This document shows, piece by piece, positions 6,879 through 49,980 of a stretch of 64,000 bases of DNA. Source of the DNA: an uncultured Candidatus Micrarchaeota archaeon (GTDB taxonomy: Archaea; Micrarchaeota; Micrarchaeia; Anstonellales; Bilamarchaeaceae); assembly GCA_963714085.1 (NCBI GenBank), contig OY970229.1, forward strand, positions 376,392 through 440,391. The letters run 5' to 3'. A program made the translations under genes and the position numbers. A model generated the notes under the pieces. The model worked only from the letters and a program-made list of their open reading frames with translations, had not been told where the DNA came from and did no database searches. The first letter of the stretch is position 1. Every line of letters starts with the position of its first letter.

Positions 6879-6889
6879 GATGCAGCGCC

Positions 6890-9988: not shown

Positions 9989-9989
9989 C

Positions 9990-22205: not shown

Positions 22206-22772
22206 TCAGCCGAGCACGGTTCCGGTGAGCGTCGCGTCCGCGGGCCTCGGGACCGTGGTGACGTCGTTCACGTAGTTGTAGTATATCACCAGCACGCCCT
22301 GGAACGCGCTGTTCGGGGTCAGGCTTATCGGGTTCCCGTTCACGTCCACGCAGGTCGAGGACATCTTCTCGCTCGAGCCCGCGGCGACCAGCTGCTGCGC
22401 GGGCGGCACTTGTGTGGCGAACGTGTAGTTCGCATCCGCGAACGCGGCCGTGGTGCAGAGCACCTTGGACACGTTCACCGCCTGGCCCTTGCCGTTCTGG
22501 AGGTTGAACTCGGCGACAACCTGGTTCGTGGAGGTGTTCATGATTATGGCCGGGTTCGTGGAGCAGGTGAAACCAGGCTGTGAGAACTCGCAGACCTCCG
22601 GGACCGCGGTGAACCTCGGCAGGAAGTACGCCAGCAGCGCGAGCACGATGACTATGACCAGGATCGCCCAGCCGTAGGTCATCAGGTACTCCATGGCCGC
22701 CTGGCCCTTCGAGCGCGACCCGGGCCGCGCGACGCCTTTCCTTCCATCTTTGTTTTTGCTTTTATAGACCAT
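22206..22772 (-). CDS. Class III signal peptide (type IV pilin-like) protein, 188 aa
   Basis: MVYKSKNKDGRKGVARPGSRSKG/QAAMEYLMTYGWAILVIVIVLALLAYF has a basic leader, KG at -2/-1, Glu at +5 and a hydrophobic helix. ATG 22772 is preceded by ggtg. The 549-aa track ORF (22206-23855) only shares this frame by read-through. Confidence 0.85.
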   Translation of the reverse strand: MVYKSKNKDGRKGVARPGSRSKGQAAMEYLMTYGWAILVIVIVLALLAYFLPRFTAVPEVCEFSQPGFTCSTNPAIIMNTSTNQVVAEFNLQNGKGQAVNVSKVLCTTAAFADANYTFATQVPPAQQLVAAGSSEKMSSTCVDVNGNPISLTPNSAFQGVLVIYYNYVNDVTTVPRPADATLTGTVLG

Positions 22773-22783
22773 TCGGTAACACC

Positions 22784-23851
22784 TCAGATAAGAGTCGAGA
22801 AGAACACGTTGAGCGTGGCGCTCACGAACCAGTACACCAGCAGCGAGCCCGCCAGCAGGAACGGGAAGTACTTGAGCCCCTGGCTCCGGGTGCCCGTCCT
22901 TATGGCGCTCACTATGAGCGATGAGGTCGCGGCAGTGACTATCATGGTCGGTATGGCGAAATAGAAGAACTGCGTGGATGATATCATGGGGCCGGAGAAG
23001 CTGAACGAGCTCAGGGCCCCGAACGCGCCCCCTGCGGCCTGGCCCGTCGGCATCTGCGGCGCGATCTTCTCGAAGACCTGCACCAGCTTCTCGGACACCG
23101 CGAAGAGGAACGGGGTGCCGACCATGGACGCGAATATCACGAATATCTCGTAGAGTATGAGGGAGGCGGCGATCTCCTTCCTCATTATGGAGGTGTTGCG
23201 CACGTCCTCGGCGGTCCGCTCCAGGACCTCGGTGAGCTCGCCGCCGCTCGCGGACGCCTGCTTCATGAGCGAAGTGGTCCGCGTGAACACCTTGCTGTCG
23301 AACCTGGACGCGAGGGTGTCCAGCGCGTTCTCCATGGACTGGCCGGAGAACGAGCTCTTGACCACGGCCTTGACCTCGGTCGAGAGCAGACCGAACTCGG
23401 GCTTGGCCGAGTACCACATCGCCTGGTCCAGCGTCATGCCGGCCTTGATGTTGGAGGACACGAGCGTGAGGAAGTCGGGCAATGCGGCCTCCAGCGCGTT
23501 CCTCCTGGCGTCCGCCTGCATGATGAGGTAGGTGGAGAGCAGCATGGTCACGGTGATGTACACCAGCACCAGCATGATTATGAGCACCAGGAGCCCGGTG
23601 AGGACCGCGGGCACCTTGGTTCCCAGCAGCCCGTTCACCGCTGACACCATGAAGGTGGCGGTGGGCGGATAGACCATGAGGACGACCGATAATATGACCG
23701 AGATGATGATGACGTTCATGGCGAGGTAGCCGGCGAACGCGTCCGGCTGCACGGTCAGGCCGGCGGCAGCGGTGTCGGTCTCGAAGCGCTTGACCTGGCT
23801 CCTCGTGAAAAGCAGGCGCCCGAAGAATTCGAAGGATGTGTCTTGTGCCAT
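22784..23851 (-). CDS. T2SSF-domain polytopic membrane protein (TadC/FlaJ-like platform subunit)
   Basis: LPDFLTLVSSNIKAGMTLDQAMWYSAK...LSTEVKAVVKS...GQSMENALDTLASR.....F.R...L..QASASGGELTEVLE is the T2SSF pattern, with flanking TM helices. Confidence 0.85.
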   Translation of the reverse strand: MAQDTSFEFFGRLLFTRSQVKRFETDTAAAGLTVQPDAFAGYLAMNVIIISVILSVVLMVYPPTATFMVSAVNGLLGTKVPAVLTGLLVLIIMLVLVYITVTMLLSTYLIMQADARRNALEAALPDFLTLVSSNIKAGMTLDQAMWYSAKPEFGLLSTEVKAVVKSSFSGQSMENALDTLASRFDSKVFTRTTSLMKQASASGGELTEVLERTAEDVRNTSIMRKEIAASLILYEIFVIFASMVGTPFLFAVSEKLVQVFEKIAPQMPTGQAAGGAFGALSSFSFSGPMISSTQFFYFAIPTMIVTAATSSLIVSAIRTGTRSQGLKYFPFLLAGSLLVYWFVSATLNVFFSTLI

Positions 23852-23862
23852 TCATGACCGCC

Positions 23863-24732
23863 TCATATGATGTATTTGGGCCTGCTGGTCTCTATGAGGC
23901 CAAGGAACAGGAACTGTATGATCGCTATCACTATGAACACCGGCGCCAGTATGGAGGACGTCATGCCGAGCGTGCCTCCTGAGATCGCCGAGAAGACCAC
24001 GGTGGCGAGCACCACTCCCAATGAGGGCACGATGATGCCGAATACCATGAAGAACATGACTATGGGGGTGAGCTTCTGGCTGTACTCCTTGAGGGAGATC
24101 ACCTGCTCCTTGGATATCTGGTCAAGGACCACCTCGACCGAGCTGCCGACATCCGCGCCCGAGGAGATGGAGTTCGAGAGCTGCATGAGCATGCGAACGA
24201 AGTATCTCGAGGGGTTCTGCTGCGCCTCGTCCCGTATGGCCTGGACGAGCGGGACCCCCAATGTCACGCGGTCCGCTATCCTGCTGAACTCCCTGCTCAC
24301 CGCCCCGTACCCGGAGGTCGCGCCCACTATGGCGTCGAAGAGCGGCATGCCGGATTTCACCGCGATGACGATCTGCCTGCCCGCGAACACGACCTCGTAA
24401 TCCAGCTCCTTGGCCCGCTTCAGCACCATGGCGTCCGGATACAGCATGAAGTAGTAGAACAGGACCAGGAAATACACCACCGCCAGGGGCACGAGCCAGA
24501 GCAGCGACACCGGCGGGTTCTGCGAGAGGAATATCACCCCGGTGAGCAGCAGGAAAGCGACCGCCAGGTAGATGGAAGAGAGCGAGGCCTTCTCCAGGAA
24601 TTCGATGGGCGTCTGGCTCATGTTGGCTAGCGCGAGCTTCTTCTTGAGGTCTGGGAAGTAGGGCGAGAACATCTCGGCTATCGCCATCTGGACGCTCCTC
24701 TGCCGGGCCGACGTTTTATCTTCTGCCGCCAT
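23863..24732 (-). CDS. T2SSF-domain polytopic membrane protein (TadB-like platform subunit)
   Basis: FAGRQIVIAVKSGMPLFDAIVGATSGYGAVSREFSRIADRVTLGVPLVQAIRDEA......YFVRMLMQL...I.SGADVGS is the T2SSF pattern. Its ATG is 2 nt after the upstream stop. Confidence 0.85.
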   Translation of the reverse strand: MAAEDKTSARQRSVQMAIAEMFSPYFPDLKKKLALANMSQTPIEFLEKASLSSIYLAVAFLLLTGVIFLSQNPPVSLLWLVPLAVVYFLVLFYYFMLYPDAMVLKRAKELDYEVVFAGRQIVIAVKSGMPLFDAIVGATSGYGAVSREFSRIADRVTLGVPLVQAIRDEAQQNPSRYFVRMLMQLSNSISSGADVGSSVEVVLDQISKEQVISLKEYSQKLTPIVMFFMVFGIIVPSLGVVLATVVFSAISGGTLGMTSSILAPVFIVIAIIQFLFLGLIETSRPKYII

Positions 24733-24734
24733 GG

Positions 24735-26450
24735 CTAGCCCTCTGTTTCGCTGAAGTACTTTCTCACCATATCATCACTTAAACCTTTCTCACGCGCCGT
24801 GATCTCCTTTGCCCTGAATATGGCCTCCTGGCGCGAGACGTGCTTGCGCTCGTACCTCTTGTAGAACTCCGGGTCCTTGCCGTGCAGCATGTAGAGCAGC
24901 GTGCCGTCGTCCATCTCGTTTATCTCCGCCACCAGGTCCTGCACCTTGGCCTCCTTGGCCGGGACGCCCTCCTTGCCGAAGGCCACCCGGCTGGACGTCT
25001 CTATCGTGGCGTCTATCTGCTTCTTCATTATCGCGCGCACGGCCGAGAACTCCTTCGCGTAATCGTCGTCTATCGCCTTGAGGCGGGCGTCCGAATCCTT
25101 CACGAGCTGCTCGTCGCCAGGGCCGAGCGAGGACTTGAGCTGCCTTATCTCGCTCTCGTGCTTCTGGGTGACGTAATCCTGGTACTTGGAGACCGCGCCC
25201 GGGAGCTGCTCCAGGAGCGACGTGAGCTGGAACGTGAGCTTGTCGAACTCCGCCTTCCTGCCTGACTGGTCCTCTTCTGGTAGCGAGCCGACCGCGTCCT
25301 GGAACTTCTGGCGCATGGTGTCCATCTGGGCCTTGTAGCTGCTCAGTATCTTGTCCTTGGCGTCTGCGAGCTCGGTCTTCTGCGTGGAGACCAGCGTCTC
25401 CAGCACCCTGCCCCTGACCTCCTTCTCCGCCATGCCCTTGCCGACCGGCTTTGCCTTCCTCGCGAGCATGTCCTTGAGCACGGTTATCTCGAGCTTTATC
25501 TGCTCCCTCCGGTTCAGGCTCTTCTCCTTGAACAGCTCCTTCGTGAGCGAGAGCATCCTCTTCTTGAGCGAGGCCTCGTCCACCTCCTGGCCGAGCGACG
25601 CGGTTATCTGCTGCTCTATGTCCAGGTACTTCCTGCTAGCGGCCTGTTCCGCCCTCTCGCGGAGCATGGGCGGCACCGGCGCAACGGGCCGCTCCGGCGC
25701 TGCCAAGGGCCTGGCAACGGGCCTCGGCGCGGGCCTTTCCTGGACCTCCTTCGGGAGTTCCTTCTCTTCGGGCAGCTCCCTCACTTGAGGGATCTTCTCT
25801 CGGGGGAGTTCCTTCTCTTCAGGAACCCGGGGCAGTTCTTCCGGCAGTTCCTTCTCCTCCGGCGATTCGGGCGGCTTGGCCTCCGGCGGCTTCTCGATCT
25901 CCAGCTCCTTCTCCGCCGGCTGCTCCTTGTTCCCGCCGAGCAGCTCCAGCTCTATCTCCGCCGGCCTCTCCGCAGGCTTCTCCTCCTTCTGCGGCATGAG
26001 GTCGCGCTCCAGTTCCAGTGGCGGGCTCACCAGCCGCTCGAACTCGATCTCCTCGGAAGGCGGCTTCGCCTCAGGCTTCCCTGCGGCTATGGGGGTCTCC
26101 ATCTCCCTGCCCATCTTCTCCGCGCCGCTGAGCGCCTCGGTCGTGAGCGCCTTCACCTTGCTCTCCACTTCCTCGGTCTTCGCCTTCATCTCCTTCTTGG
26201 CCGCCGGCGTCGGCGCGGCCTTCGCCCCTGCGGGCGCGCCGTACATGCCCATGCCGGCTGATGTCTTGATTATCTTGTCCGCGCGCTCGCAGAGGTTTAT
26301 CAAATCAGCGTACGTATAGTCCGCGAAGTCCGCGGGCTCCAGGTCCAGCACCTTCTCGAACTCCACCTTGCCCTTGAACGCCGTGTAGGGCTGCGCGGAT
26401 TTCTCTATGTTCCTCGCCTGTTCCGCAGCGGAGTAGAAGTCGTCTGGCAT
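24735..26450 (-). CDS. Operon-embedded 571-aa hypothetical protein, coiled-coil with E/K/P-rich EKELP repeats
   Basis: The central region reads PEEKELPEELPRVPEEKELPREKIPQVRELPEEKELPKEV. It is followed by long heptad-like helices and a conserved-looking C-terminus (..LYMLHGKDPEFYKRYERKHVSRQEA..). I recognise no family. Confidence 0.7.
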   Translation of the reverse strand: MPDDFYSAAEQARNIEKSAQPYTAFKGKVEFEKVLDLEPADFADYTYADLINLCERADKIIKTSAGMGMYGAPAGAKAAPTPAAKKEMKAKTEEVESKVKALTTEALSGAEKMGREMETPIAAGKPEAKPPSEEIEFERLVSPPLELERDLMPQKEEKPAERPAEIELELLGGNKEQPAEKELEIEKPPEAKPPESPEEKELPEELPRVPEEKELPREKIPQVRELPEEKELPKEVQERPAPRPVARPLAAPERPVAPVPPMLRERAEQAASRKYLDIEQQITASLGQEVDEASLKKRMLSLTKELFKEKSLNRREQIKLEITVLKDMLARKAKPVGKGMAEKEVRGRVLETLVSTQKTELADAKDKILSSYKAQMDTMRQKFQDAVGSLPEEDQSGRKAEFDKLTFQLTSLLEQLPGAVSKYQDYVTQKHESEIRQLKSSLGPGDEQLVKDSDARLKAIDDDYAKEFSAVRAIMKKQIDATIETSSRVAFGKEGVPAKEAKVQDLVAEINEMDDGTLLYMLHGKDPEFYKRYERKHVSRQEAIFRAKEITAREKGLSDDMVRKYFSETEG

Positions 26451-26467
26451 GTGGAATCACTTTTGGG

Positions 26468-28081
26468 TCAGCGCCCGAACTCCCATTTCACGCCCTTGCG
26501 CGCCGCGTCTATGACCTCGTCCGGGTTCAGGTAGTAATGCGACACTATCTCGCCGACCTGGTCGACGTCCTCGTAGCCGTTCTTCACCATCCAATCGAGT
26601 ATCTCGGTCTTCTCACGGACGTCCTCCTCTATCTCCCGCTCGTCCATGCCCGCGTACAGCGAGAGCAGCCCCGAGAGCCGGTCCATCTTGCCGACCCCCT
26701 TTATCTTGTCGCTCTTGACGTCCCACTTGTAGAGCGTGTTTATCGCCCCGTTCTTCTTGACCTCGCTGAACTCCAGCACCCTCCTGATGTTGAACCTCCT
26801 GTGCCTGAAGGTCACCACGATGCCCGAGAGCGCGTCCAGCATGGCCGCGGGTATGTTTATCGGCGGGTTGGTGAGCCTGGATATCGTCTGCTCGGAGTTG
26901 TCCGCGTGCAGAGTGGCGTACACCGAGTGGCCCGTGTGCATGGCCTCGAAGAGTATCTCGGCCTCGCGCTGGCGCCTTATCTCCCCGACTATTATGCGGT
27001 CGGGCCTCTGCCTCAATGCGTTCACCATCAGGTCGAGCATCGTGACCTCGCCCTTGCCCTCCGGGTTCGGCTCGCGCACCACCATGGGCACCCAGTGCAG
27101 GAACGACGGGAGCGTGAGCTCCCTCGTGTCCTCTATGGAGACTATCCTCTGGTTGGCCGGGATGAGCCCGGACATCGCGTTGAGGAAGGACGTCTTGCCC
27201 GAACCCGTTCCTCCTGTGACCAGGAGCGAGAGCTCGTTCTGTATGCAGAGCCATATCAGGCCGGCCACTTCTGACGATACCGTGTTGGAGCGTATGAAAT
27301 TCGTTATGGTCCAGGGGTTCTTGGCGAACTTCCTGATGGTGATGGTGTTTCCGAAGCTGGATATGGGGAACATCGTGGAGTTCACACGGTCCCCTGAGGG
27401 CAGGTGCGCGTCCAGCATCGGGTTGAGCACGTTTATCTGCCTGCCGATCTTCCTCGCTATCATGGACGCGTAGTCGTATATCTGCTCCTCGCTCCTTAGC
27501 CGGAGGTTGCTCTTGCACCATCCGAACTTCTTGTGGTAGACCCACACCGGGTCCTGCGAGTTGTTGATGACCACTTCTTCCAGCTGGTCGTCGGAGAGGA
27601 ACGCCTCGAGCTCGCCGAGGCCCAGCGTGTTCTGGAGCAGGTAGACCGCGAGTATCTCCTTCTTGTCCGGAGGGAGCGTCGGGAAGTTCCGCTGCAGTAT
27701 GCGCTTGGCCGCCTCCAGGAACTTGCCCTTGACCTCCTCGAATTTCTTCGGGTCGAGGATCTCGGAGATGTCAAGCTTGACCTCTGTGACCAGCTCGCCC
27801 TTGAGCTTGGTCTCCAGGATGAGCTTGGTGCCCTCGGCTATGCCGGGGATCGTGACCTCGTAGCGCGGCACGAAGTCCTTGCCCTTGATTATCTTGACCT
27901 CCACCGGGAGGCCCTCGCTGGTGAAGCTGTAGGACGCGAGCAGGGATATCTTCGTCCGTCTCTCCTCCGGAGGGGCGGATTCGGGCGCTGCGGCCACAGG
28001 AGGGTCTGCTTCGGGAGGCTTCGGCGGGTCAGCCCTGAGCCTGTCCCTTATCCTCTGTCTGATATCGTCATCCTTGGGCAT
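26468..28081 (-). CDS. Type II/IV secretion-family ATPase (FlaI/TadA/VirB11-like)
   Basis: Walker A GGTGSGKTSFLNA, RIVSIEDTRELTL, Walker B/His box RPDRIIVGEIRRQREAEILFEAMHTGHSVYATLHA. I chose ATG 28081 (MPKDDDIRQRI...); the track start at 28186 would overlap the upstream gene. Confidence 0.93.
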   Translation of the reverse strand: MPKDDDIRQRIRDRLRADPPKPPEADPPVAAAPESAPPEERRTKISLLASYSFTSEGLPVEVKIIKGKDFVPRYEVTIPGIAEGTKLILETKLKGELVTEVKLDISEILDPKKFEEVKGKFLEAAKRILQRNFPTLPPDKKEILAVYLLQNTLGLGELEAFLSDDQLEEVVINNSQDPVWVYHKKFGWCKSNLRLRSEEQIYDYASMIARKIGRQINVLNPMLDAHLPSGDRVNSTMFPISSFGNTITIRKFAKNPWTITNFIRSNTVSSEVAGLIWLCIQNELSLLVTGGTGSGKTSFLNAMSGLIPANQRIVSIEDTRELTLPSFLHWVPMVVREPNPEGKGEVTMLDLMVNALRQRPDRIIVGEIRRQREAEILFEAMHTGHSVYATLHADNSEQTISRLTNPPINIPAAMLDALSGIVVTFRHRRFNIRRVLEFSEVKKNGAINTLYKWDVKSDKIKGVGKMDRLSGLLSLYAGMDEREIEEDVREKTEILDWMVKNGYEDVDQVGEIVSHYYLNPDEVIDAARKGVKWEFGR

Positions 28082-28128
28082 AGAATCCACCGGGCAAACG
28101 TCGGCATGATTAAGCGTATTAAGATAAG

Positions 28129-28139
28129 TATATTTATAA
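28129..28139 (-). promoter_or_regulatory. TATA box of the pilus-like operon
   Basis: The minus strand reads cTTATAAATATAc in the 82-nt gap after giant paralog 1. ggtgga lies 5-10 nt upstream of ATG 28081. Confidence 0.45.
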
Positions 28140-28163
28140 GGGCTTAGATGCCCCGGGCGCCGG

Positions 28164-35789: not shown

Positions 35790-35808
35790 GAGGATATTAC
35801 ATAGGTCG

Positions 35809-35819
35809 ATTTAAAAGGA
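35809..35819 (-). promoter_or_regulatory. TATA box of giant paralog 1
   Basis: The minus strand reads aatCCTTTTAAATc, then 19 nt, then ATG(35789). Confidence 0.5.
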
Positions 35820-35835
35820 TTATTTACCCGGGCCG

Positions 35836-42549: not shown

Positions 42550-42569
42550 ACTTAATTTACGCGGCTAGA

Positions 42570-42580
42570 ATTTAAAAAGA
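42570..42580 (-). promoter_or_regulatory. TATA box of giant paralog 2
   Basis: The minus strand reads attCTTTTTAAATt, then 20 nt, then ATG(42549). The whole 5' flank (ctagccgcgtaaatt) is shared with paralog 3. Confidence 0.5.
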
Positions 42581-42598
42581 ATCTTGTTTGAGGGCGCT

Positions 42599-42680
42599 TC
42601 GCTTTTTCTCGTCTTCCCATGGCTTCTTGACGAGCTGGTCCGGCTCCTCGCGCTTGAACCCGTCCTCTTCGTCCCGGGCT
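42599..42680 (-). pseudogene. Remnant of the 3' end of the coiled-coil gene (copy of ~48176-48260)
   Basis: It translates as RDEEDGFKREEPDQLVKKPWEDEKK, versus the authentic C-terminus RDEEDEFKRKREELRQLVKKLWEDEKK*. The stop codon is mutated (tca to tcg on the plus strand) and there is a 6-nt deletion. It lies between paralog 3's stop and paralog 2's promoter. Confidence 0.6.
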
Positions 42681-42702
42681 CCTGTTTTCCCGGCTGGGGA
42701 CG

Positions 42703-44400
42703 CTATGCCTTTTGCGCCGGCTTCCTCTTGTTCTTGCCGTTGCGCCATTTCCGGTATGCCAGGTATGCCAGGATCATGGCGATGATCAGCGGGAGCACCC
42801 AGCAGTAGTTCGGCGGCTGCTCGACCAAGGCCGGCGCCGGGGGCTGGGCGGCCGGCGGAGGCAGCGCGACCGCGATTATGTGGCTCTTCACAGAAGAGCC
42901 CGCCAGGAGGAGGTTGACCGTGTAATTGCCGTGGAACGCGAACGGAAGGACGGCATCGCCGTTCGCATCCGTGGTGGTCTGGAACGAGGGCCCGCCAGGC
43001 AGGATTATCTCGAGCGTGGCGTTCACGAACGCCTGCCCGCCCACCGTGGCATGGACCTTGCCCTGCCCTCCCACCAGGCCTTCTTTGTCGCCTGTCAGGT
43101 CGACGGGCTCGCATGCGTGCGCTATGCACACGTTGGCAGTCGGGCAGTCGGAATCCTGGCAGCAGCGGTATGAGGACCAGGCGTGGTTGGCTGCGAAGCC
43201 GCACACCCCGGTTACGGGTTGGCAGGCTCCTATGCTCAGGTTGCAGAAATCGACCAGCGGGCACTGGTCGTCCGAGGTGCAGCCCGAGCTCGTAACTGGC
43301 GGGGGCACGGGCGGGGGCGCTATCGCGCAGGTGGTGAACGTGAATGTTTCGCTTCCCGGCAGATAGCCGTTCTGCGATGCGTCTGCCTCGTAGGTCCCGC
43401 TCGCCGAGAGCTGGAATGTCGCCGTCCCGTCGCTTCCGGCGATCTGTTGGTCTACGAGCCCCTCGTACGGGCTGGTGAGCAGGAGCCGTATCTTGGTGCC
43501 CGGTCCGCTGTATGCGGTCACGGTGACCTGGTTGGCCGGGCACGGCGCCCGGGTCAAGGAAAGCGACAATGGAATCTCGACGGGCGGGGGTGACGAGGGG
43601 GTGTAGACCGGTGGCGGAGCCTGGGGCGTAGTCGGAGTCCCGCCGAGGATGCCGAATGTGCTCCCGAAATCGATTATGTTCGCGAACACGTATCCGTCGC
43701 TCGTGTCCACCCCGTACGGTGAGGAGAAGTCCGACGAGTTCACGTCCCATCCGGCGGCGTCGTATCTCGCCATGAAGAGCGTGCTCGCGTTCAAAGATGC
43801 GACGTCTGCCGGCGTATAGCTCAGGTTTAGGAAGAGGAAGGAGTCCGGGGAGTTGGAGGTCGATTGCACGAACCTGTTGATGTCGTACAGGCCGGACGGG
43901 TCCGGCGCATTGGTGGCGATAGAGGTCTCGCTGCCGTTCTCGAAGAGCTTTATCTCGAATGTGTCGTTCCCGGACGTGTCGACGCCGTCGTATTCCGCAT
44001 TGTGGTCGTAGGAGATGACGTACACGCGGTTCGGCGCCGTGCCCGCCACGCCGTAGGTGATGTTGCTGACCACGCCGTCTGAGACAAGATCGCCCCATAC
44101 CCCGGCGACCAGGAAGTCCGAACCCTGGGTTATGGTCTGCGAGTCCATGCGGGCCTGGCCGCAGCATGAAGAATCGGATGAAGCGATGATGTCGTTGCTC
44201 AAGTAGACGAAGCCGTTGGTGCTTATCGCGATGTGGTCGTTCTGCCTCCCGAAAAGCGTGACGTTGAACGGGAGCGTTATGTCGCTGCTGAGAGCGTCGT
44301 CGCCGTACATCGTCTGCGGGGACGATATGTCCGATACCGGCGTGATGTCCGTGGGGACGCTGGCGACTGTCGCGCCCGCGTCTGGTGTCGGTGTGTATGC
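42703..44400 (-). repeat. 3' cassette, copy B (near-identical to 35836-37531)
   Basis: See copy A. The shared off-frame ORFs in the track (36059-36499 vs 42926-43366, and 37000-37215 vs 43864-44082) reflect the same nucleotide identity. Confidence 0.9.
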
Positions 44401-47400
44401 TATGGAGCCGTTGTACGCGTTGGAGGTCGGGCCGAAGGAGGTTATGTCACGGGAGCCTGAGGGGCCGTCTGATATACCTGTGACTTTGTCATTGATCGCT
44501 TCGGTCGAGAGTATGTCCACCTCGACGCTAGGCGAACCGCCGATGTATCCTTGCGGCGGCCCGGACTGCTGGACGTTCACGTCCTCCGAATCGAATGAGA
44601 CCATGTCATTGCCGAGCGTGAGGTTGTCCACGATGTTGCCCGTGGAACCCGAGTACGAGGAGAACGCCCAGACGGAGTTGTCGGACGCGTTGAAGCCGCT
44701 GAAGTTATTGCCCTCTGCAGAATAGAGATAGATGCCAATCGGGTTGCCGGATGCTGAGCTGCCGTTGATGCTGTTCGGGCCCGATGATTCCATGTCGAAG
44801 CCATGATACGCGTTGTCGTCTGCGGTGCAGTTGGAGAGGCTGGAGGCGGAGAGCGCGTCCGCATAGAAACCCTGGTAGCCATTTGCGATGGCTGAGTCGT
44901 TGGAGTACACGCCGTTGTCGTCGTATAGCATCCCGAAGCCGAGTGCGTTGTAGGACGAGGCCGTATTGTTGATGGCGGAATTGTCCGTGTAGTACTCCAG
45001 GAAACCGTCGTTGTAGAGCGTGTCCGAGCCGTTGACCACGCTGTTCGTGACATTGGAGCCGTCCGCGCCGCAGAGCTCGATCTCGGCCGCGTCCAGGCTG
45101 TCCCAGGAGACGGAGCCGTTGGAGTAGTATATCGGGCGGGATGCGGAGCCGACCGTATCCGCGATGTCGTTCTGGCAGTCGCTCGATGAGAGCGGGTACA
45201 CATAAAGGTCGAAGTAGTTGTTTTCCATGGCGCTGTTGTTGTACAATGCGTTCTGGCTCGACGAATAGAGCATGATGCCGTTCCAGGTGCTGTTGTCGGC
45301 GACGTTGCCGGACAGGTTGTTCTGGTCCGAGTATTGGAGGTAGATGCCGCCATAGTCGTAATCTGCGCTATTGCCGGAGATGGCGTTCTGGTCCGATGAG
45401 TAGAGGGAGATGCCGTAATTGCCGGAATAGTTGTCGGCGCTGTTGTTGGCCACGTTGTTCTGGTTCGAGGAATCGAGGATTATGCCGGAATATCCGTTGT
45501 CGGCGTCGTTGTCCACGATGCTGTTCTGGTTCGATGACTCGAGATCGACGCCGCCGCCGCTATTGTTCACGATGCTGTTGTTGGATACGCTGTTCTGGTT
45601 CGAGCTGGTAAGGTAGATGTCAGGGAAATAGTCCATGCTGGCGATGGTATTGTTATAAACGGAGTTCTGGTTCGATTGGTCGATATAGACGCCTTCCAGG
45701 ATGCCGTCGATGCTGTTGTCGTGCAGGGCATTGTGGTTGGACGAGTAATAGACGTAGATTGGGCTGTTCGTGTAGTAGAAGCTGCTGTTGTATAGAGCAT
45801 TGTTGCTCGATGAATAGAGATGGACGCCCGAAAAGCTGTAGTTGAAGCTGTCGTTGCATATGACATTGTTGTTCGATGAAGCGAGGGATACGCAGGTGCC
45901 GCTGCTGTTGTCGAAGCTGCTGTTCGCGAATGTGTTGCTGTTGCTCGATGAGACGAGGGCACCGTAAGTGCTGTTACCGAAGCTGATGTTCGAGAAGGTG
46001 TTGTTGTTGCTCGATGATACGAGGTAAGAGTCGTAAGTGCTGTTCTCGATGCTGATGTTTGTCATGGTATTGTTGCTCGATGAGGAGAGGTAAATGCCGT
46101 AGGTGTTGTCATCTAGGATGAGGTTCGAGAGCGTGTTGTTGGCGCTGTAGGCGGAGCCGGGGTACCAGTAAACGGAAGTGAAATAGACGCCGTAGGTGTT
46201 GTTGTCGATGACGCTGTCGGAGACATAATTGTTGTTCGAAGGGGCGAAGTAGATGCCGTACTGGTTGTTGCTGATGTTATTGCCGGAGAGGTTATTGTAG
46301 TTGCCGAAAAGCAGGTAGTAACCTGCAAAGATGCCATAGTGGTCGCCGCTGATGTTATTGCCATAGACGGATTCGCCTGTCTGGGCGTAGAGGTAGATAC
46401 CGCTGTTGGTGTCGTTATCGACGGTGTTTCGACAGACTGTGCCGCCGCTTGCTGAAACGATCGAGATGCCATAGGCGTTGTCGCTGGCATTGTTATCATG
46501 CACGTAAACGTTATTGCCGGCATAGGCAAATACGTAGATGCCGTAACTGTTGTTGGTGGCGCTATTGTTATAGACAGCGCTGTTTGGCGTAGAAATGTAT
46601 ATCCCGTAGGTGTTGTTGTAGGCGATGTTATTATCGATGGTCGCATTCTCGTAGCCGTACTCCCCAATCGAGAGTATGCCGCTTAGGCTGTTGCTCACGA
46701 CGTTGTTATAGATGCTGACGTTGTCCGAGTAATAAGAGTAGATGCTGTAATTGTTGGTGTTGCTCACACTATTATTATAGACGGCAACATTGGGCGCCGG
46801 TCCATTGTAGACGCCCACTTGGATGCCCATGTCGAAGGAGTTGTTGACATTGTTGCTGTAGATGCTGGCGTTAGTCCCGCTAACGAGGATGCCGTTGGGG
46901 GCGCAGCCATCGACAGTGTTGTTATAGATCTGAACGTAGAGTAGGCCGTCGGAATAAGACTCGCTAGAAGCGGTTATGCCGTTGTTGGTATTGTAAGGAC
47001 CCTGATTTCCGTCGTTAATGACGACATTGCTGTAGATGCTGCTCTTGTTTCCTATGAAATCGATTCCGTGGTCGCTCTGGTTAACTACGATATTGTCATA
47101 GATGCTGCTATTGGAGCCTTGAAGGACGATGCCGTCATAGGAGTTGTTATAGACGTTATTGCCATAGACGCTGTTTCCAGACCCGGGCCCGAAGAACATG
47201 CCTCCGTAGTTCCCGTATATGTTATTGTTGGCAATGGTGTTGTTATTGGTAGTCGTGCTGAACCCGCCTCCGTAAATGCCGTAGTAGGTGCCGCCAGTGA
47301 TGTTATTGCCCGTGATTGTGTTGTAGTTGTTGCCGTTGGCGCTGTTCGGAATATAAAAATCAATGCCGATGTCGCATTTGCTTAATATGTTGCCGGAGAT

Positions 47401-48057
47401 AGTAGAGTTAGTCACGTTGTCCAGTTCGATGCCCCTGGGACTGTTGGTGGTAAGGTTAGCGACAGTATTGTTTGCTATAATCAAATTGCTTGAACCGTAT
47501 AGATAAATGCCTACCTGGTAGGTGGTAGGCGCGGCAGGAGGGCCGGAGATTATGCAGTTCGTCAAAGTAACGTTAGTAGAAGTCTGGATAAAAATGCCGT
47601 CTGCGGGATATATGCCGGTGTTCTGGATGGTGTTGTTCGCGCAGTCCAAGGCAACATTGTTTGAAATGATTTTGACGCATGCGTAAGTAAAAATTATCGG
47701 TACGGCGTTCGGCGCGCCGATGGAGCTTATGTTCAGCACGTAGGAGCCTGGCAGGGTTATCACAGGGCAGTTGGTGTTCAGCACGATGGGACCTGGTGGG
47801 CCGCCGAGAGGGCTTTCTGCGGATGTTTGCGATGCGGTCCCGTTTTGCTGGCTCGCGGACTCGCCTTGGACGGATTGGTTCGAGGAGTCATTTGCAACAA
47901 GCGTGCCGTTATCGCCCGCGGACTGGTTATCCGGGGTCGCATTGAACGCGCTCCCGTTCTGGTCGGACTGGGCATGGCTCACTGTCATGTATGTGAACAA
48001 TGATATAGTCAATACCAACAATAATACCGAAAATACTACATTCCCCCTTGGCCGCAT
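42703..48057 (-). CDS. Giant surface protein, paralog 3 (1784 aa)
   Basis: MRPRGNVVFSVLLLVLTISLFTYMTVSHAQS..., with beta-helix coils, a NIDO-like module, and the same C-terminal unit and TM anchor. The track start at 48063 is TTG; ATG 48057 aligns with the paralog 2 start. Confidence 0.9.
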   Translation of the reverse strand: MRPRGNVVFSVLLLVLTISLFTYMTVSHAQSDQNGSAFNATPDNQSAGDNGTLVANDSSNQSVQGESASQQNGTASQTSAESPLGGPPGPIVLNTNCPVITLPGSYVLNISSIGAPNAVPIIFTYACVKIISNNVALDCANNTIQNTGIYPADGIFIQTSTNVTLTNCIISGPPAAPTTYQVGIYLYGSSNLIIANNTVANLTTNSPRGIELDNVTNSTISGNILSKCDIGIDFYIPNSANGNNYNTITGNNITGGTYYGIYGGGFSTTTNNNTIANNNIYGNYGGMFFGPGSGNSVYGNNVYNNSYDGIVLQGSNSSIYDNIVVNQSDHGIDFIGNKSSIYSNVVINDGNQGPYNTNNGITASSESYSDGLLYVQIYNNTVDGCAPNGILVSGTNASIYSNNVNNSFDMGIQVGVYNGPAPNVAVYNNSVSNTNNYSIYSYYSDNVSIYNNVVSNSLSGILSIGEYGYENATIDNNIAYNNTYGIYISTPNSAVYNNSATNNSYGIYVFAYAGNNVYVHDNNASDNAYGISIVSASGGTVCRNTVDNDTNSGIYLYAQTGESVYGNNISGDHYGIFAGYYLLFGNYNNLSGNNISNNQYGIYFAPSNNNYVSDSVIDNNTYGVYFTSVYWYPGSAYSANNTLSNLILDDNTYGIYLSSSSNNTMTNISIENSTYDSYLVSSSNNNTFSNISFGNSTYGALVSSSNSNTFANSSFDNSSGTCVSLASSNNNVICNDSFNYSFSGVHLYSSSNNALYNSSFYYTNSPIYVYYSSNHNALHDNSIDGILEGVYIDQSNQNSVYNNTIASMDYFPDIYLTSSNQNSVSNNSIVNNSGGGVDLESSNQNSIVDNDADNGYSGIILDSSNQNNVANNSADNYSGNYGISLYSSDQNAISGNSADYDYGGIYLQYSDQNNLSGNVADNSTWNGIMLYSSSQNALYNNSAMENNYFDLYVYPLSSSDCQNDIADTVGSASRPIYYSNGSVSWDSLDAAEIELCGADGSNVTNSVVNGSDTLYNDGFLEYYTDNSAINNTASSYNALGFGMLYDDNGVYSNDSAIANGYQGFYADALSASSLSNCTADDNAYHGFDMESSGPNSINGSSASGNPIGIYLYSAEGNNFSGFNASDNSVWAFSSYSGSTGNIVDNLTLGNDMVSFDSEDVNVQQSGPPQGYIGGSPSVEVDILSTEAINDKVTGISDGPSGSRDITSFGPTSNAYNGSIAYTPTPDAGATVASVPTDITPVSDISSPQTMYGDDALSSDITLPFNVTLFGRQNDHIAISTNGFVYLSNDIIASSDSSCCGQARMDSQTITQGSDFLVAGVWGDLVSDGVVSNITYGVAGTAPNRVYVISYDHNAEYDGVDTSGNDTFEIKLFENGSETSIATNAPDPSGLYDINRFVQSTSNSPDSFLFLNLSYTPADVASLNASTLFMARYDAAGWDVNSSDFSSPYGVDTSDGYVFANIIDFGSTFGILGGTPTTPQAPPPVYTPSSPPPVEIPLSLSLTRAPCPANQVTVTAYSGPGTKIRLLLTSPYEGLVDQQIAGSDGTATFQLSASGTYEADASQNGYLPGSETFTFTTCAIAPPPVPPPVTSSGCTSDDQCPLVDFCNLSIGACQPVTGVCGFAANHAWSSYRCCQDSDCPTANVCIAHACEPVDLTGDKEGLVGGQGKVHATVGGQAFVNATLEIILPGGPSFQTTTDANGDAVLPFAFHGNYTVNLLLAGSSVKSHIIAVALPPPAAQPPAPALVEQPPNYCWVLPLIIAMILAYLAYRKWRNGKNKRKPAQKA

Positions 48058-48077
48058 ACGCAATTTACGCGGCTAGC

Positions 48078-48088
48078 ATTTAAAAAGA
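48078..48088 (-). promoter_or_regulatory. TATA box of giant paralog 3
   Basis: The minus strand reads attCTTTTTAAATg, then 20 nt, then ATG(48057). Confidence 0.5.
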
Positions 48089-48175
48089 ATTCCTTTTGCG
48101 TATGCCGATTTACCGAAGATAATGCGATTGTTTCACCGAGGTGGTGGTTTTCCTCCGCTCCGCCACGCGTCGGGC

Positions 48176-49888
48176 TCACTTCTTCTCGTCTTCCCACAGT
48201 TTCTTGACTAGCTGGCGCAGCTCCTCGCGCTTGCGCTTGAACTCGTCCTCCTCGTCCCGCGTGAGCGCTATCTCCTGGGTGAGCTCGCTTGTCTTCTCGG
48301 CAGGGGCCGCGGCTGCCCCTCCGCCGGCCCGCAGCTCCAGCACGCCGGCCTGCCTGGAGAGCAGGGCGAGCTTCTTGTTAAGGTTCTCGGAGGTCTTGGA
48401 CAGCGATTCGATGCTGTTTTTCACGCTTTCGAGCATCTGCCGCTTCTTCTCGATCTCGGCGGCTATTTTCATGACTTCCTCGACCTTCTCGTTGTCCATG
48501 TGCTCGGACGCCTTCTCGGCCTGGGCCTCTATGTCCCGGGTGACGGCGCTGACATCCGACTTCATCTTCCTGAGCTCGGCGTCGAGCCCCTCCATCTCGC
48601 GCCTGTTGCGCTCGAGGGATGGCATCACCTTCTCGCGTATGGACTGGTATGTGAGGAACGTCTCCTTCTCCTCGGACAGCGCGGTGGAGAGCTCCTGGAG
48701 CTGCGCCGAGAGCTCGTCCATCCGCTCGGCCATCCGGTTGCCCAGGTCCTCGAATTCGGCTCCAACGGTCCCGGCGCCTCCGGCCACGTCGAGCAGCTTC
48801 TTCAGCGCCTTCGTGCGCTCGTCTATGCTTTTCTCCGACTTCTGCACCTTCTCCAGCTCCTGGACCAGGCCCTTCTGCGCCGGGAAGCGGTCCAGTATCT
48901 CTTTCGCCACGTTCATGGAATCCGAGAAATGCTCCATGGTCTCCTTGTCCCTCTCGAGCCTGTCCGCGAGCTTCGTGCTCTTGGCCTTGAGCTCCTCGGC
49001 CTGGCCTGAGAGCGTGGAGATGTCCTGTTTCATGGAGGCGATCTTCTTGTCGTAGTCCTTCATGGACTCCCCGATGACCTTGAGCACGTCCTTGCCCTCC
49101 TGCAGCCCGGTGAGGTCCTGCCTCATGCGTGCGGACCGCTCCTTCGTGTCCTTGAATTCGGACATCAGCTCGTCGAGCTTGTCGCGGATGTCATCCATCC
49201 TGGGCATCTCGATCTCCTGGGGCCCTGTTTTCGCATAGCGGTCGGCCTTCAGTTTCAGGGACGAGAGGTCCTTCCTCATGCCCGCTAGCTCGGCCGAGAG
49301 CGCGTCCAGCCGATCGACGGTCTTCTTGGTCGGCCCCTTCTCCATGGTCTTGCCGATGCCCTCAATCTCGCGGCGCGAATCGTCGAGCTCCTTTGTGACG
49401 GAATCCAGCCGGGTCACCGCGTCGTCAAGCTTCTCCAGGTACTCGTCCAGCCTCGCCGTGCCTCCTGCCTTGGCCTTGTCAACGCCCTCGAGCTTCTTCT
49501 CCAGCTCGCTGAGCCTGGGGGAGAGCTTCGCGTAGAGCTCGTTGAAGGAATTGTTCAGCTCGTCCAGCCCCTGCGCCTGGGGCTGGGCCTCTTTCTTCAG
49601 CGCGGCGATCTCTTCCTGGACATCGGTGCGCTTCTTGTAGAACTCCTCCTTCTCCGCGGCGACCTGCTGCTCGGTCGGGGCTACCCACACCAGGTATATC
49701 TTTGTGAGCCGGTACTCTATCCTGATTATGCCTTCCTCCTCGAGCGCCGCGCCCCAGTCCTCGATCGTGGTCTCTGGTATGTTCAGGACCGCTGCGGCTT
49801 CGGTGAGCTCGATGCGCCCCTTGTCCTTGACGAGCCGGACCAGGGCGTCGACTCCGGTTGTGATAAGCAGTTCATCGAACTCGACCAT
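48176..49888 (-). CDS. Winged-helix N-terminal domain plus ~500-aa coiled-coil protein
   Basis: MVEFDELLITTGVDALVRLVKDKGRIELTEAAAVLNIPETTIEDWGAALEEEGIIRIEYRLTKIYLVW, followed by continuous heptad-rich E/K/L sequence. ATG at 49888 (the track start at 49894 is GTG). TATA-like ataatattaataaag lies upstream. Confidence 0.8.
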   Translation of the reverse strand: MVEFDELLITTGVDALVRLVKDKGRIELTEAAAVLNIPETTIEDWGAALEEEGIIRIEYRLTKIYLVWVAPTEQQVAAEKEEFYKKRTDVQEEIAALKKEAQPQAQGLDELNNSFNELYAKLSPRLSELEKKLEGVDKAKAGGTARLDEYLEKLDDAVTRLDSVTKELDDSRREIEGIGKTMEKGPTKKTVDRLDALSAELAGMRKDLSSLKLKADRYAKTGPQEIEMPRMDDIRDKLDELMSEFKDTKERSARMRQDLTGLQEGKDVLKVIGESMKDYDKKIASMKQDISTLSGQAEELKAKSTKLADRLERDKETMEHFSDSMNVAKEILDRFPAQKGLVQELEKVQKSEKSIDERTKALKKLLDVAGGAGTVGAEFEDLGNRMAERMDELSAQLQELSTALSEEKETFLTYQSIREKVMPSLERNRREMEGLDAELRKMKSDVSAVTRDIEAQAEKASEHMDNEKVEEVMKIAAEIEKKRQMLESVKNSIESLSKTSENLNKKLALLSRQAGVLELRAGGGAAAAPAEKTSELTQEIALTRDEEDEFKRKREELRQLVKKLWEDEKK

Positions 49889-49980
49889 GGGCACAAATAA
49901 CCCGAGTAGCTTTATTAATATTATGCCGAATGGTTATTGGTATTGGTAAGTCACAATCGAATGTCCGCCACTGTGATCGC

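Follow-up and report, generated by a model that had tools for sequence, protein, structure and literature searches.

Organization of the locus

The window, the whole 64-kb stretch of DNA analysed here, derives from a member of the Micrarchaeota (DPANN), and the relatives of its pilus assembly ATPase at 75-97% identity all come from Micrarchaeota MAGs. Nine genes lie on the minus strand from position 49888 down to 22206: a winged-helix/coiled-coil protein, CC572 (48176-49888; 570 aa counted from the ATG); the giant proteins P3 (42703-48057; 1784 aa), P2 (35836-42549; 2237 aa) and P1 (28164-35789; 2541 aa); an ATPase of the FlaI/GspE/TadA family (26468-28081; 537 aa), 82 nt from P1; the conserved operon protein cc571 (24735-26450; ~570 aa); two genes with one T2SSF domain each (23863-24732 and 22784-23851); and a 188-aa pilin precursor bearing a class III signal peptide (22206-22772). 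All nine had been correctly identified in a preliminary description, with the order, strand and sizes given here. A 549-aa ORF at 22206-23855 in the mechanical ORF list is an artefact spanning the pilin and an out-of-frame T2SSF gene. The giants take up ~21.7 kb of the 64 kb, in line with an earlier estimate of about 20 kb. The source contig of 1.57 Mb is not especially compact for DPANN, contrary to the compact genome assumed previously.

A divergently transcribed gene next to CC572 (49930-51471, plus strand) encodes a 513-aa multi-winged-helix protein with TrmB, HTH_5 and HTH_47 matches, a possible regulator; its position is unchanged in the P0002 contig and in loci L085, L086 and L088.

A conserved pilus operon

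Searches by tblastn with the window proteins against 80 Micrarchaeota species loci recover a conserved unit, CC572-ATPase-cc571-T2SSFa-T2SSFb-pilin. Spacers within the operon are 2-17 nt. A CC572 homolog lies immediately upstream of the ATPase, with a gap of at most 200 nt, in 42 of 48 scorable species loci (at most 75 nt in 37 and at most 10 nt in 17), and a cc571 ortholog lies downstream of the ATPase in ~45 loci. The ATPase, 57-97% identical across Micrarchaeota, matches T2SSE in Pfam (6.7e-40) and, in the PDB, Archaeoglobus fulgidus GspE (2oap; 6.5e-70), FlaI (3.6e-58) and CpaF (3.3e-49). Both T2SSF genes match their model (8.9e-16 for the N-terminal and 7.2e-16 for the C-terminal half) and their products align to successive parts of the 484-residue UpsF, positions 29-250 and 264-479, which identifies them as the predicted halves of one split platform protein. 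The pilin has the cleavage region ...SRSKG/QAAMEYLMTYGW with Glu at +5, and its motif KG/QAAMEYL is Flp-like (G/XXXXEY); the pattern [KR]G[QA]xxxE[YFL] is present in 41 of 48 pilin orthologs, the remaining seven being start-calling artefacts or variants. The HMM searches that the preliminary description had called for thus returned T2SSE, T2SSF and, for the giants, NosD/Beta_helix matches, and no Pfam match for the pilin; its FlaI/TadA-like ATPase, its two separate T2SSF membrane proteins and its class III signal peptide pilin all stand.

The same applies to the winged-helix/coiled-coil protein. In CC572 a winged-helix domain of ~70 aa at the N-terminus precedes a coiled coil of ~480 aa; an AF2 model of residues 1-100 has pLDDT 83-90 across residues 10-70 and an H-S-H-H-hairpin topology, Foldseek matches it to the wHTH proteins AspA, ArsR/MarR and TFE-alpha, and a profile search of the PDB with CC572 gives coiled-coil matches only. 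It is probably a regulator or scaffold. In cc571 an acidic central region of EKELP repeats is followed by a C-terminal half that is helical and conserved; the protein is without a match in Pfam, NCBIfam or the PDB even as a 36-sequence profile. Judged by sequence, the unit is a type IV pilus operon of the archaeal Epd or bacterial Tad type, conserved across the sampled Micrarchaeota loci.

Architecture of the giant proteins

P1, P2 and P3 all match NosD and Beta_helix, at 1e-46 to 1e-104 (P2: Beta_helix 8.5e-104; P3: NosD 4.7e-72, Beta_helix 1.2e-71). P3 is identical to database protein P0124, matches TIGR03804 para_beta_helix across 12 stretches and carries 77 sequons. Sequon density in the giants is 4.3-5.8 per 100 aa, with autocorrelation peaks at 22-23, 45-46 and 68-69 residues, and DNA repeats recur every 69 nt as near-identical units in tandem; both periodicities match coils of 23 aa and bear out the 22-23-aa beta-helix coils with sequons described before. 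P1 additionally carries a Gly run, a pair of beta-sandwich caps and three domains of the Ig-like Big_13 type, and has further hydrophobic stretches spanning aa 50-68 and aa 77-95. Codon usage is native (GC3 0.76-0.83 vs 0.77-0.88 in housekeeping genes). Because the N-termini bear Sec-type signal peptides (…SHA/QS; signal peptides and TM segments were called by eye and hydropathy), these would be type I membrane proteins anchored at the C-terminus, and not strictly tail-anchored as had been proposed.

Alignments define the anchor cassette at 28167-28751 in P1, 35839-36441 in P2 and 42706-43308 in P3, all on the minus strand: a 10-Cys module, a beta-sandwich, a Pro-rich linker, a TM helix and a Lys/Arg tail, in that order. 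A common C-terminal unit had been recognized earlier, but with eight Cys where the alignments give ten invariant ones. CarboxypepD_reg scores slightly under the cutoff in the giants, and an AF2 model of the cassette, of low confidence (pLDDT 58), places the sandwich at 84-149 and the helix at 168-190. The Cys part is without a match to any Pfam or NCBIfam model. A profile search with the anchor module returns at least 792 cluster representatives; among the best 150 matches it lies at the extreme C-terminus in 141. Family members reach 6703-7796 aa, and the few named carriers among the matches are annotated 'right-handed parallel beta-helix repeat-containing protein [Candidatus Micrarchaeota]'.

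Duplication and divergence of the paralogs

P2 and P3 share 52% amino acid identity over 1800 aa, distributed unevenly: identity is 72-90% in the C-terminal ~650 aa and 27-47% in the centre, and their 3' ends are 89-91% identical in DNA. P1 is a distant paralog (~25% identity). The spacer between P3 and P2 contains a degenerate copy of the CC572 3' end (42599-42676, minus strand), which by blastn is 80% identical to CC572 across 84 nt, carries a deletion of 6 nt, has lost the stop codon, and is followed by a 40-nt promoter copy of 93% identity at 42543-42582. P2 and P3, as read from these sequences, arose by tandem duplication, with the CC572 remnant between them as its scar. Relative to L001, the flanking genes are 94-98% identical and the giants only 42-46%.

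Two further paralogs lie away from the pilus genes. The fourth, noted previously at the window edge, is represented by its N-terminal 680 aa (1-2040, minus strand, open to the edge; NosD and Beta_helix ~1e-34), and it lies among radical SAM, MarC and DnaJ/K/GrpE genes; its ortholog in the L001 genome, P0131 (2347 aa), carries the C-terminal module of the anchor cassette. A fifth, P0130 (6703 aa), is located elsewhere on the same contig.

Linkage and promoters

The preliminary description had named absence of the linkage from relatives as grounds for rejecting it, and the linkage is not conserved. No giant is present between CC572 and the ATPase in the 80 Micrarchaeota species loci; the anchor-module HMM matches in one of the 80, at a distance of 7 kb and six genes. 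Giants at this junction are confined to the window, with three, and two close relatives with one each: L001/L002 (2686 aa; ATPase 97% identical) and the P0002 contig (1870 aa; ATPase 96% identical). Sister lineages with ATPases of 84-85% identity have cargo unrelated to the giants at the junction. Across the clade the junction holds an AbiEi/AbiEii toxin-antitoxin pair with three other genes in L088, a 629-aa multi-HTH protein in L086, four small ORFs in L085, and nothing inserted in L003 (ATPase 81%). Within the shallow clade (ATPase identity of at least 85%), a giant beta-helix gene does lie at most about 7 kb from the ATPase in four of the seven lineages sampled at ATPase identity of at least 81% (the window, L001, the P0002 contig and L085, the last at another site and in opposite orientation), and thus some local association could be selected rather than inherited.

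The promoters, called by motif only, also fall into two kinds. The TATA-like box TTTTAAAT stands at -27/-28 of all four giants, against a motif density of 0.45 per kb per strand in the window: at 48078-48085 for P3 (28 nt upstream of the ATG), 42570-42577 for P2, 35809-35816 for P1 and 2061-2068 for the unlinked fourth paralog, all on the minus strand. Its geometry differs from that of the ATPase operon promoter, whose TATA box (28133-28139, minus strand; CTTATAAATATAC block) is 58 nt upstream of the ATG and is kept in L001, L085, L086 and L088 regardless of upstream cargo, with TTTATAAAT in L003. A T7 run directly past the pilin stop (22194-22200, minus strand) is the likely operon terminator; no comparable run follows P1, and the 82 nt before the ATPase contain no oligo-T terminator. 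Transcription of each giant most likely starts at its own promoter, independently of the pilus genes.

Interpretation of the neighbourhood

We favour, with a probability of roughly 0.7, the reading that a conserved pilus operon and a separate hypervariable insertion slot lie side by side. The slot would be located between CC572 and the ATPase promoter, filled here by three paralogous giant surface glycoproteins, and the pilus operon would be bounded by its own promoter and by the oligo-T terminator past the pilin. The giant mRNAs would probably be leaderless, and their products presumably exported via Sec, N-glycosylated on a beta-helix rich in Asn-x-Ser/Thr, and retained in the membrane by the C-terminal cassette with a variable beta-helix 'head' projecting outward. 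The array would have grown by the single P2/P3 duplication and by amplification of coil units of 69 nt, with heads that diverge quickly and a signal peptide and stalk that remain conserved. This pattern typifies the variable adhesins or host-contact proteins that ectosymbionts carry, and an adhesin role for the giants is plausible. With a variable 'cargo slot' in a conserved operon, the neighbourhood would be accidental, the product of lineage-specific insertion and duplication, and not a new combined attachment machine in a small symbiotic Micrarchaeota archaeon.

The single coupled system proposed earlier is not supported: the junction cargo varies, the giants have their own promoter motifs and Sec signals, and two further paralogs are unlinked to the pilus genes. 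A narrower version, in which the giants were recruited beside the pilus genes within the window's clade and are co-expressed and act with them, seems to us unlikely. Co-expression could come from read-through, which the lack of a terminator-like T run between P1 and the ATPase would permit, or from a shared regulator (CC572 or the divergent multi-winged-helix protein), and the pilus could make first contact and retract or hold, with the giants locking onto the host surface. The arrangement of nine genes on one strand and the retention of giants at or near the locus in four clade lineages fit such coupling, as do the adhesin or S-layer-like extras often held by archaeal type IV pilus loci (PMC4858521) and the LamG surface proteins linked to such loci in the Micrarchaeon Mia14 (PMC5498576). 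Sister-lineage junctions that are empty or filled with unrelated cargo, and 80 species without giants there, argue otherwise, as do a promoter motif that the giants have in common with the unlinked fourth paralog and whose geometry is not that of the ATPase promoter, signal peptides that are Sec-type and not class III, and two paralogs located elsewhere.

Less probable still is that the giants are not adhesins but beta-helix glycanases of the pectate-lyase/tailspike kind that would remodel the host envelope or break through it, or a structural coat or sheath supplementing the S-layer. Many polysaccharide lyases and hydrolases, as well as NosD, do adopt the right-handed beta-helix fold, a protective coat would also fit the huge size and dense glycosylation, and a C-terminal TM anchor with conserved Cys resembles S-layer-like proteins of type IV pilus loci (PMC4858521). 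The giants, however, have no sequence match to a catalytic family or solved enzyme, and the centre of the recent duplicates P2 and P3, at 20-45% identity, diverges too fast to preserve an active site; the S-layer protein known from Micrarchaeota is a different one, of ~101 kDa with TIGR01564/01567 domains (10.1101/2021.04.28.441871), neither of which is found in P3. We give very little credence to decaying ORFs or assembly artefacts. Assemblers can collapse or expand repetitive DNA such as the 69-nt units, but the three ORFs run unbroken for 5.4-7.6 kb in 58% GC DNA, conservation extends to their signal peptide, anchor cassette and promoter, intact orthologs occur in independent assemblies (L001 and the P0002 contig), and the C-terminal architecture is common to hundreds of family members.

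Comparison with known systems

The pilus operon resembles the Epd-type (clade 1) pili of Methanococcus maripaludis and the bacterial Tad/Flp systems: PDB matches place its ATPase in the FlaI/GspE/CpaF group, its two platform genes with one T2SSF domain apiece recall EpdJ/EpdK and TadB/TadC ('two TadC components' are described for archaeal pili; PMC4858521), its pilin has a short basic leader and the G/xxxxEY processing motif as in Flp, and the genes form a tight operon. It departs from them in adding CC572 and cc571, conserved cytoplasmic proteins without known relatives, in a precursor of 188 aa where clade 1 major pilins have ~70 aa, and in a locus without a prepilin peptidase, minor pilins, a DUF2341 adhesin or a MinD-like ATPase.

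The giants are similar to the PbH1/NosD adhesin-like and S-layer-like proteins of Methanosarcina and Methanobrevibacter in their signal peptide, beta-helix repeats, Ig-like/beta-sandwich spacers, dense sequons, single C-terminal TM anchor, conserved Cys, multi-copy family and generic annotation as right-handed parallel beta-helix repeat-containing proteins. They differ in size (1784-2541 aa, with the family up to 6703-7796 aa) and in their specific cassette of 10-Cys module, CarboxypepD_reg-like sandwich and TM helix, for which the named carriers seen are Micrarchaeota only. Makarova et al. 2016 list adhesin-like/S-layer-like surface proteins of this beta-helix kind beside archaeal type IV pilus loci. 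Surface or adhesin-like proteins in this setting have been described before (PMC4858521, PMC5498576); the preliminary description could put no name to such an archaeal system. One related case is 'Ca. Mancarchaeum acidiphilum' Mia14, of the same phylum; its genomic islands bring surface-protein genes together with type IV pilus loci (PMC5498576). There too strain-specific large surface proteins with a proposed role in host contact lie in a variable region beside the locus (PMC5498576), but these are LamG, PKD, beta-propeller or CARDB proteins and not beta-helix giants, and in the window the variable slot interrupts the operon itself, separating the first gene from the second. A functional likeness only extends to variable large surface proteins of other DPANN symbionts, such as the SPEARE proteins of Nanohaloarchaeum antarcticus (PMC11291902), which have a different architecture according to their authors, and the cell-surface proteins of Nanoarchaeota that evolve fast (PMC6142677). 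Like the giants, these are very large, secreted or membrane-bound and fast-diverging proteins of a host-dependent archaeon, and are presumed to take part in its interaction with the host.

Gene organization of the window

From position 49888 down to 22206 every gene lies on the minus strand, an order proposed in the preliminary description and borne out by the six-frame ORF list and translations from which the genes were called. The run begins with CC572, a winged-helix/coiled-coil protein (48176-49888), and passes through three giant beta-helix surface proteins, P3 (1784 aa, 42703-48057), P2 (2237 aa, 35836-42549) and P1 (2541 aa, 28164-35789); after a spacer of 82 nt there follow an ATPase gene (26468-28081), cc571, a protein of about 570 aa (24735-26450), two membrane proteins (23863-24732 and 22784-23851) and a 188-aa pilin with a class III signal peptide (22206-22772). 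The component identities are upheld by Pfam searches, in which the ATPase matches T2SSE (6.7e-40), the membrane proteins contain one T2SSF domain each, and the giants match NosD and Beta_helix, with Big_13 in addition in P1. The fourth giant paralog, which occupies positions 1-2040 and continues past the window edge, likewise has NosD and Beta_helix matches. One correction to the earlier account concerns the source contig, which is 1.57 Mb (1,571,539 bp) long.

Other features of the window include a complete DnaK-DnaJ-GrpE chaperone set (5724-10373, minus strand), which adjoins the fourth giant paralog and has an extra J-domain-only protein within its stretch (6890-7228), and a radical-SAM gene (2530-4965, minus strand) whose intein bears a LAGLIDADG endonuclease. 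MCM is without an intein in the window (18645-20696) and has one in two close relatives (L001:17870-21541 and L088:17064-20552); such presence and absence among near-identical lineages shows that inteins have been gained and lost between them.

Components of the pilus operon

The ATPase is most similar in the PDB to 2oap, the A. fulgidus GspE (6.5e-70), followed by FlaI (3.6e-58) and CpaF (3.3e-49), a kinship to the FlaI/GspE/CpaF group that reflects similarity ranks rather than tree placement, and its P-loop, GGTGSGKTS, is invariant in 27 homologs, as befits the FlaI/GspE/TadA-family ATPase of a type IV pilus (T4P). Of the two T2SSF proteins, one aligns to the N-terminal half and the other to the C-terminal half of UpsF/FlaJ-type platforms; the platform is thus split, as in Epd and Tad systems, and the polytopic T2SSF component of archaeal T4P (FlaJ/TadC/PilC) is supplied by two adjacent genes. 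Translation of the pilin gene, MVYKSKNKDGRKGVARPGSRSKG/QAAMEYLMTYGWAILVIVIVL (the slash marks the cleavage site), bears out a class III signal peptide with Glu at +5. By its motifs, cleavage at KG/QAAMEYLMTYGWAILVIVIVLALLAYF, a basic leader, Gly at -1 and a hydrophobic helix, the protein is a T4P pilin, and the leader [KR]G/QA(A/V)MEYL, which matches the Flp-type G/XXXXEY pattern, is kept in 41 of 48 pilin orthologs. Together the ATPase, platform and pilin genes assign the operon to the archaeal T4P systems, the predicted filament being known from its genes. No prepilin peptidase (FlaK/PibD/EppA, Peptidase_A24) was found among the window genes scanned with Pfam. The presenilin-type signal-peptide peptidase SPP (PF06550; 17806-18642, minus strand), two genes past the pilus operon and syntenic in relatives, belongs to a family other than A24.

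The remaining two members are less familiar. In CC572 a winged-helix domain, predicted with confidence (pLDDT 83-90; AF2, Foldseek), precedes a coiled coil; a sequence search of the PDB gave no match, and a profile search gave coiled-coil matches only, which are compositional. For cc571 we found no relative in Pfam, NCBIfam or the PDB, a profile search of the latter included, and none is detectable outside the phylum. It always lies 3' of the ATPase in the closer Micrarchaeota clade (orthologs in about 45 loci), its C-terminal motifs are strongly conserved (e.g. DEGTLLYYLH…YKKYERK), and it is an uncharacterised, lineage-specific component of the pilus operon.

Conservation of the operon across Micrarchaeota

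Relatives of the ATPase number in the thousands; the best 120 are 70-97% identical, and the named ones among these are all Candidatus Micrarchaeota, Bilamarchaeaceae or 'ainarchaeum' MAGs. A species scan with the ATPase alignment, taking one genome per GTDB species, yielded 80 Micrarchaeota loci with 10-kb flanks, against which all window proteins were run by tblastn. The conserved block is CC572-ATPase-cc571-T2SSFa-T2SSFb-pilin, usually followed by apgM on the opposite strand. Where both CC572 and the ATPase are callable (48 loci), the gap between them is at most 10 nt in 17, at most 75 nt in 37 and at most 200 nt in 42, so the pair is adjacent in most of the phylum and often translationally coupled. 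The window's housekeeping flanks (MetRS, S8e, TruD and Trm1 on one side; apgM, MCM, SPP, Trm5 and LeuRS on the other) are also kept in L003, a relative that has no giants.

In a distant clade of Micrarchaeota (ATPase about 59-60% identical), which includes Ca. Fermentimicrarchaeum limneticum, a sequon-rich protein of about 1150 aa is encoded convergently, directly 3' of the second T2SSF gene, in the place expected for the pilin. It matches NosD/Beta_helix at one locus (L079:11145-14624, minus strand) and is without a Pfam match at two others (L075:14033-17617 and L080:14071-17472, both minus strand).

A variable junction between CC572 and the ATPase

The stretch that the three giants fill in the window (20 kb) has quite different contents on the contigs with the closest ATPases. 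L001 and L002 (ATPase 97% identical) have one giant of 2686 aa, and on the P0002 contig (96%) a 278-aa gene accompanies a single giant of 1870 aa. At 85% ATPase identity the junction holds four small ORFs in L085 and one 629-aa protein with repeated HTH units in L086 (L086:8065-9954, plus strand); at 84%, L088 and L089 have an AbiEi/AbiEii toxin-antitoxin pair (L088:4146-5539, plus strand), an HTH protein and two unknown genes; and L003 (81%) has nothing but 53 nt. L085 does encode a 3252-aa beta-helix-like giant, on the far side, beyond the divergent TrmB-like gene. A further cluster of accessory genes, a Ser/Thr kinase with an RHH/PIN pair, occupies the pilin-apgM gap of L086 (L086:15815-18645). 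With the genes at the L086 and L088 junctions, these indicate that both edges of the operon behave as accessory-gene hotspots.

The preliminary description had taken the giants and the pilus genes to be, plausibly, one coupled attachment apparatus, and had staked this on the linkage being kept in relatives. Junction content varies among relatives with ATPases 81-97% identical, and none of the 80 species loci has giants between CC572 and the ATPase; the linkage is thus not conserved, and a coupled super-system is not supported. A large sequon-rich ORF does occur within 10 kb of the operon at about 11 of the 80 loci, of mixed types and at varied positions, a frequency that we judge not clearly above expectation for a genome of about 1 Mb with several such genes. 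A mobile-element origin of the island finds no support within the window, where neither a tRNA nor an Rfam element is present and the Pfam matches include no integrase or transposase.

Architecture and family of the giant proteins

Pfam NosD and Beta_helix match all three giants at 1e-46 to 1e-104, in 8-12 stretches per protein, and an NCBIfam scan of P3 finds 12 stretches of TIGR03804. Each giant has 77-148 sequons (4.3-5.8 per 100 aa); their autocorrelation peaks at 22-23, 45-46 and 68-69 residues, and the DNA repeats at a spacing of 69 nt, in agreement with the earlier proposal of a 22-23-aa coil carrying a sequon. Near the C-terminus of each giant CarboxypepD_reg scores just under the Pfam cutoff, and the Cys module, described previously as having eight cysteines, has ten that are invariant. 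By hydropathy and inspection, the giants begin with a hydrophobic segment leading to SHA/QS, a Sec-like signal peptide, and end with a single hydrophobic segment and a Lys/Arg tail. They are therefore type I proteins anchored C-terminally, and the former label 'tail-anchored' does not hold in its strict sense. With Sec-type rather than class III signals and with C-terminal TM anchors, they are also poor candidates for pilins or pilus-tip adhesins, and we reject both. Nor do they qualify as an S-layer protein of the SLP_Mh type (about 100 kDa): the NCBIfam scan, made with P3, returned para_beta_helix and NosD_copper_fam only, with neither TIGR01564 nor TIGR01567, and the three proteins are 1784-2541 aa long. 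The giants are putative adhesins.

P1 differs in some details. After the signal-like segment it has two further hydrophobic segments (aa 50-68 and 77-95; window 35500-35789, minus strand), so its N-terminus may remain in the membrane, and a near-pure glycine run of about 45 residues directly precedes its Cys module (about 28750-28900, minus strand).

The last 195 or so aa, which the giants have in common, were made into a profile that in an exhaustive HMMER search of 1.84 billion cluster representatives matched 792 proteins at E<=1e-3, with 57 still matching at E<=1e-30; P1-P3 and the L001 giant are themselves among the matches. Word-index searches had returned only 2 and 1 matches, a false-negative outcome of that method, and the notion that the module is unique is discarded. 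Of the best 150 matches, 141 have the module no more than 25 aa from the C-terminus, and a hydrophobic tail is present in 138 of these; lengths run from 119 to 7796 aa. The few named members are called 'right-handed parallel beta-helix repeat-containing protein [Candidatus Micrarchaeota…]' or 'parallel beta-helix repeat protein'. One module-bearing protein of 6703 aa, P0130, is encoded elsewhere on the source contig, outside the window, which with the window paralogs gives the genome at least five family members; a 2347-aa ortholog of the fourth window paralog, P0131, bears the module too. The module HMM matches only one of the 80 pilus loci, six genes and 7 kb away from the ATPase. The giants are thus ordinary representatives of a large group of anchored surface proteins, which for the most part have no link to pili at the loci that can be checked.

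In an AF2 model of the module, which is of low confidence (pLDDT 58), small hairpins rich in Cys accompany a beta-sandwich and a TM helix; Foldseek returned generic Ig-like sandwiches only (TM about 0.3), and we use the model for no more than 'beta-sandwich plus TM helix'. A search of the PDB with the P1 sequence found no related solved structure.

Origin of the array

The spacer between P3 and P2 contains a degenerate 84-nt copy of the last CC572 codons, 80% identical, with a 6-nt deletion and the stop codon lost, and after this remnant a copy of the P3 promoter (93% identical). These indicate that P2 and P3 arose by tandem duplication of a unit consisting of the CC572 3' end, the promoter and a giant. 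In the signal peptide and the last 650 or so aa the two proteins are 72-90% identical, but in the beta-helix centre, where indels are numerous, identity falls to 27-47%; P1 is related to them more remotely, as a paralog at about 25% identity. The L001 giant shares no more than 42-46% identity with P2 and P3, at a locus where identity to the window is 94-98% for CC572, the ATPase, cc571 and the platform genes and 84% for the pilin. Within P2 (38866-39277, minus strand) several tandem 69-nt (23-aa) coil units are near-identical, three of them sharing identical stretches, which points to very recent intragenic amplification; the units are a possible source of length variation or of assembly error. 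We reject a foreign origin of the giants, since their GC3 (0.76-0.83, against 0.77-0.88 in housekeeping genes) and synonymous codon use are within the housekeeping range, and their lower GC is an amino-acid effect (Asn/Ser/Thr/Ile).

Transcription signals and interpretation of the locus

Before the ATG of each of the four giants, at a distance of 27-28 nt, stands TTTTAAAT; TATA motifs of this kind have a density of only 0.45 per kb per strand in the window. A TATA box at this distance from the ATG is the archaeal geometry for leaderless mRNAs, and the giants' motifs fit TATA boxes of this kind. All junction variants compared have in common a block CTTATAAATATAC…TAATAGC at 58 nt before the ATG of the ATPase; as it is kept whatever the cargo, the island lies upstream of the ATPase's own promoter. 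The genes of the operon are separated by 17, 2, 11 and 11 nt, and past the stop codon of the pilin there is a T7 run. Divergent from CC572, with about 41 nt between the starts, is a multi-winged-helix protein of 513 aa (49930-51471, plus strand) with three to four wH/HTH units (TrmB, HTH_5, HTH_47); it has the same position in the P0002 contig, L085, L086 and L088 and is a candidate regulator of the locus.

We conclude, with a probability of about 0.7, that a lineage-specific island has broken into a conserved Epd/Tad-like pilus operon, and that its three surface glycoproteins diversify rapidly and are probably adhesive. A functional coupling of giants and pilus genes specific to this clade is unlikely: the lack of a T run after P1 comparable to the one behind the pilin makes read-through into the pilus operon possible and leaves some room for it, but the separate TATA motifs argue for independent starts, as far as such motifs can be read, and the linkage is not conserved. 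More doubtful still is a reading in which the gap between CC572 and the ATPase is a dedicated 'cargo slot' of the clade, swapping host-interaction and defence genes, with the giants and the pilus forming a grab-and-lock module for host attachment. Their co-expression would then be achieved by read-through from P1, by control through CC572 and the divergent multi-winged-helix protein, or by both, and the variable beta-helix heads would set host range.

To our knowledge, host recognition and attachment in DPANN archaea are largely unknown, and most DPANN are uncultured. The locus reveals no new machine, but it does provide three concrete handles: the six-gene operon of the closer Micrarchaeota lineages sampled, with the conserved but uncharacterised CC572 and cc571, as a candidate core filament for attachment or uptake; a giant glycoprotein family whose undescribed C-terminal cassette is joined to fast-changing heads, good candidates for host-range determinants; and near-isogenic lineages with 0, 1 or 3 giants at one junction, a natural series for linking giant repertoire to host identity. 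It is also a cautionary case, in that large same-strand neighbours in a small genome can reflect an insertion hotspot rather than shared function.

Comparison with known systems

In the archaeal T4P and DPANN surface-protein literature cited here we found no description of a variable slot splitting a normally coupled gene pair, nor of the 10-Cys/sandwich/TM anchor cassette, the Cys part of which matches no Pfam or NCBIfam model. Clade 1 archaeal T4P loci have two TadC components (PMC4858521), and with Epd-type (clade 1) T4P and bacterial Tad systems the window shares two separate TadB/TadC-like platform genes beside the ATPase. Epd and Tad loci have small major pilins (about 70 aa), several minor pilins, DUF2341 adhesins and a MinD-like ATPase, whereas the operon here has a single pilin, 188 aa long, and minor pilins, DUF2341 and a MinD-like ATPase are absent from the operon and the window. 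Archaeal T4P loci also include S-layer-like proteins, adhesins and coiled-coil cytoplasmic proteins, as described by Makarova et al., one of these being a putative S-layer protein that is C-terminally anchored and contains Cys (PMC4858521). The Micrarchaeota S-layer protein with experimental support, SLP_Mh (about 101 kDa, with TIGR01564/TIGR01567 domains; 10.1101/2021.04.28.441871), is a different protein from the giants. In the micrarchaeon Mia14, Golyshina et al. reported two T4P systems, strain-specific surface proteins amounting to 2.5% of the genome, and LamG proteins tied to T4P loci in genomic islands (PMC5498576), and in Nanoarchaeota surface proteins and T4P components evolve fast (PMC6142677). 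With adhesin-like surface proteins of the beta-helix (PbH1/NosD) type the giants share the repeats and, judged by hydropathy and inspection, the export signal and the anchor. The locus thus adds a further example to classes that are already known.
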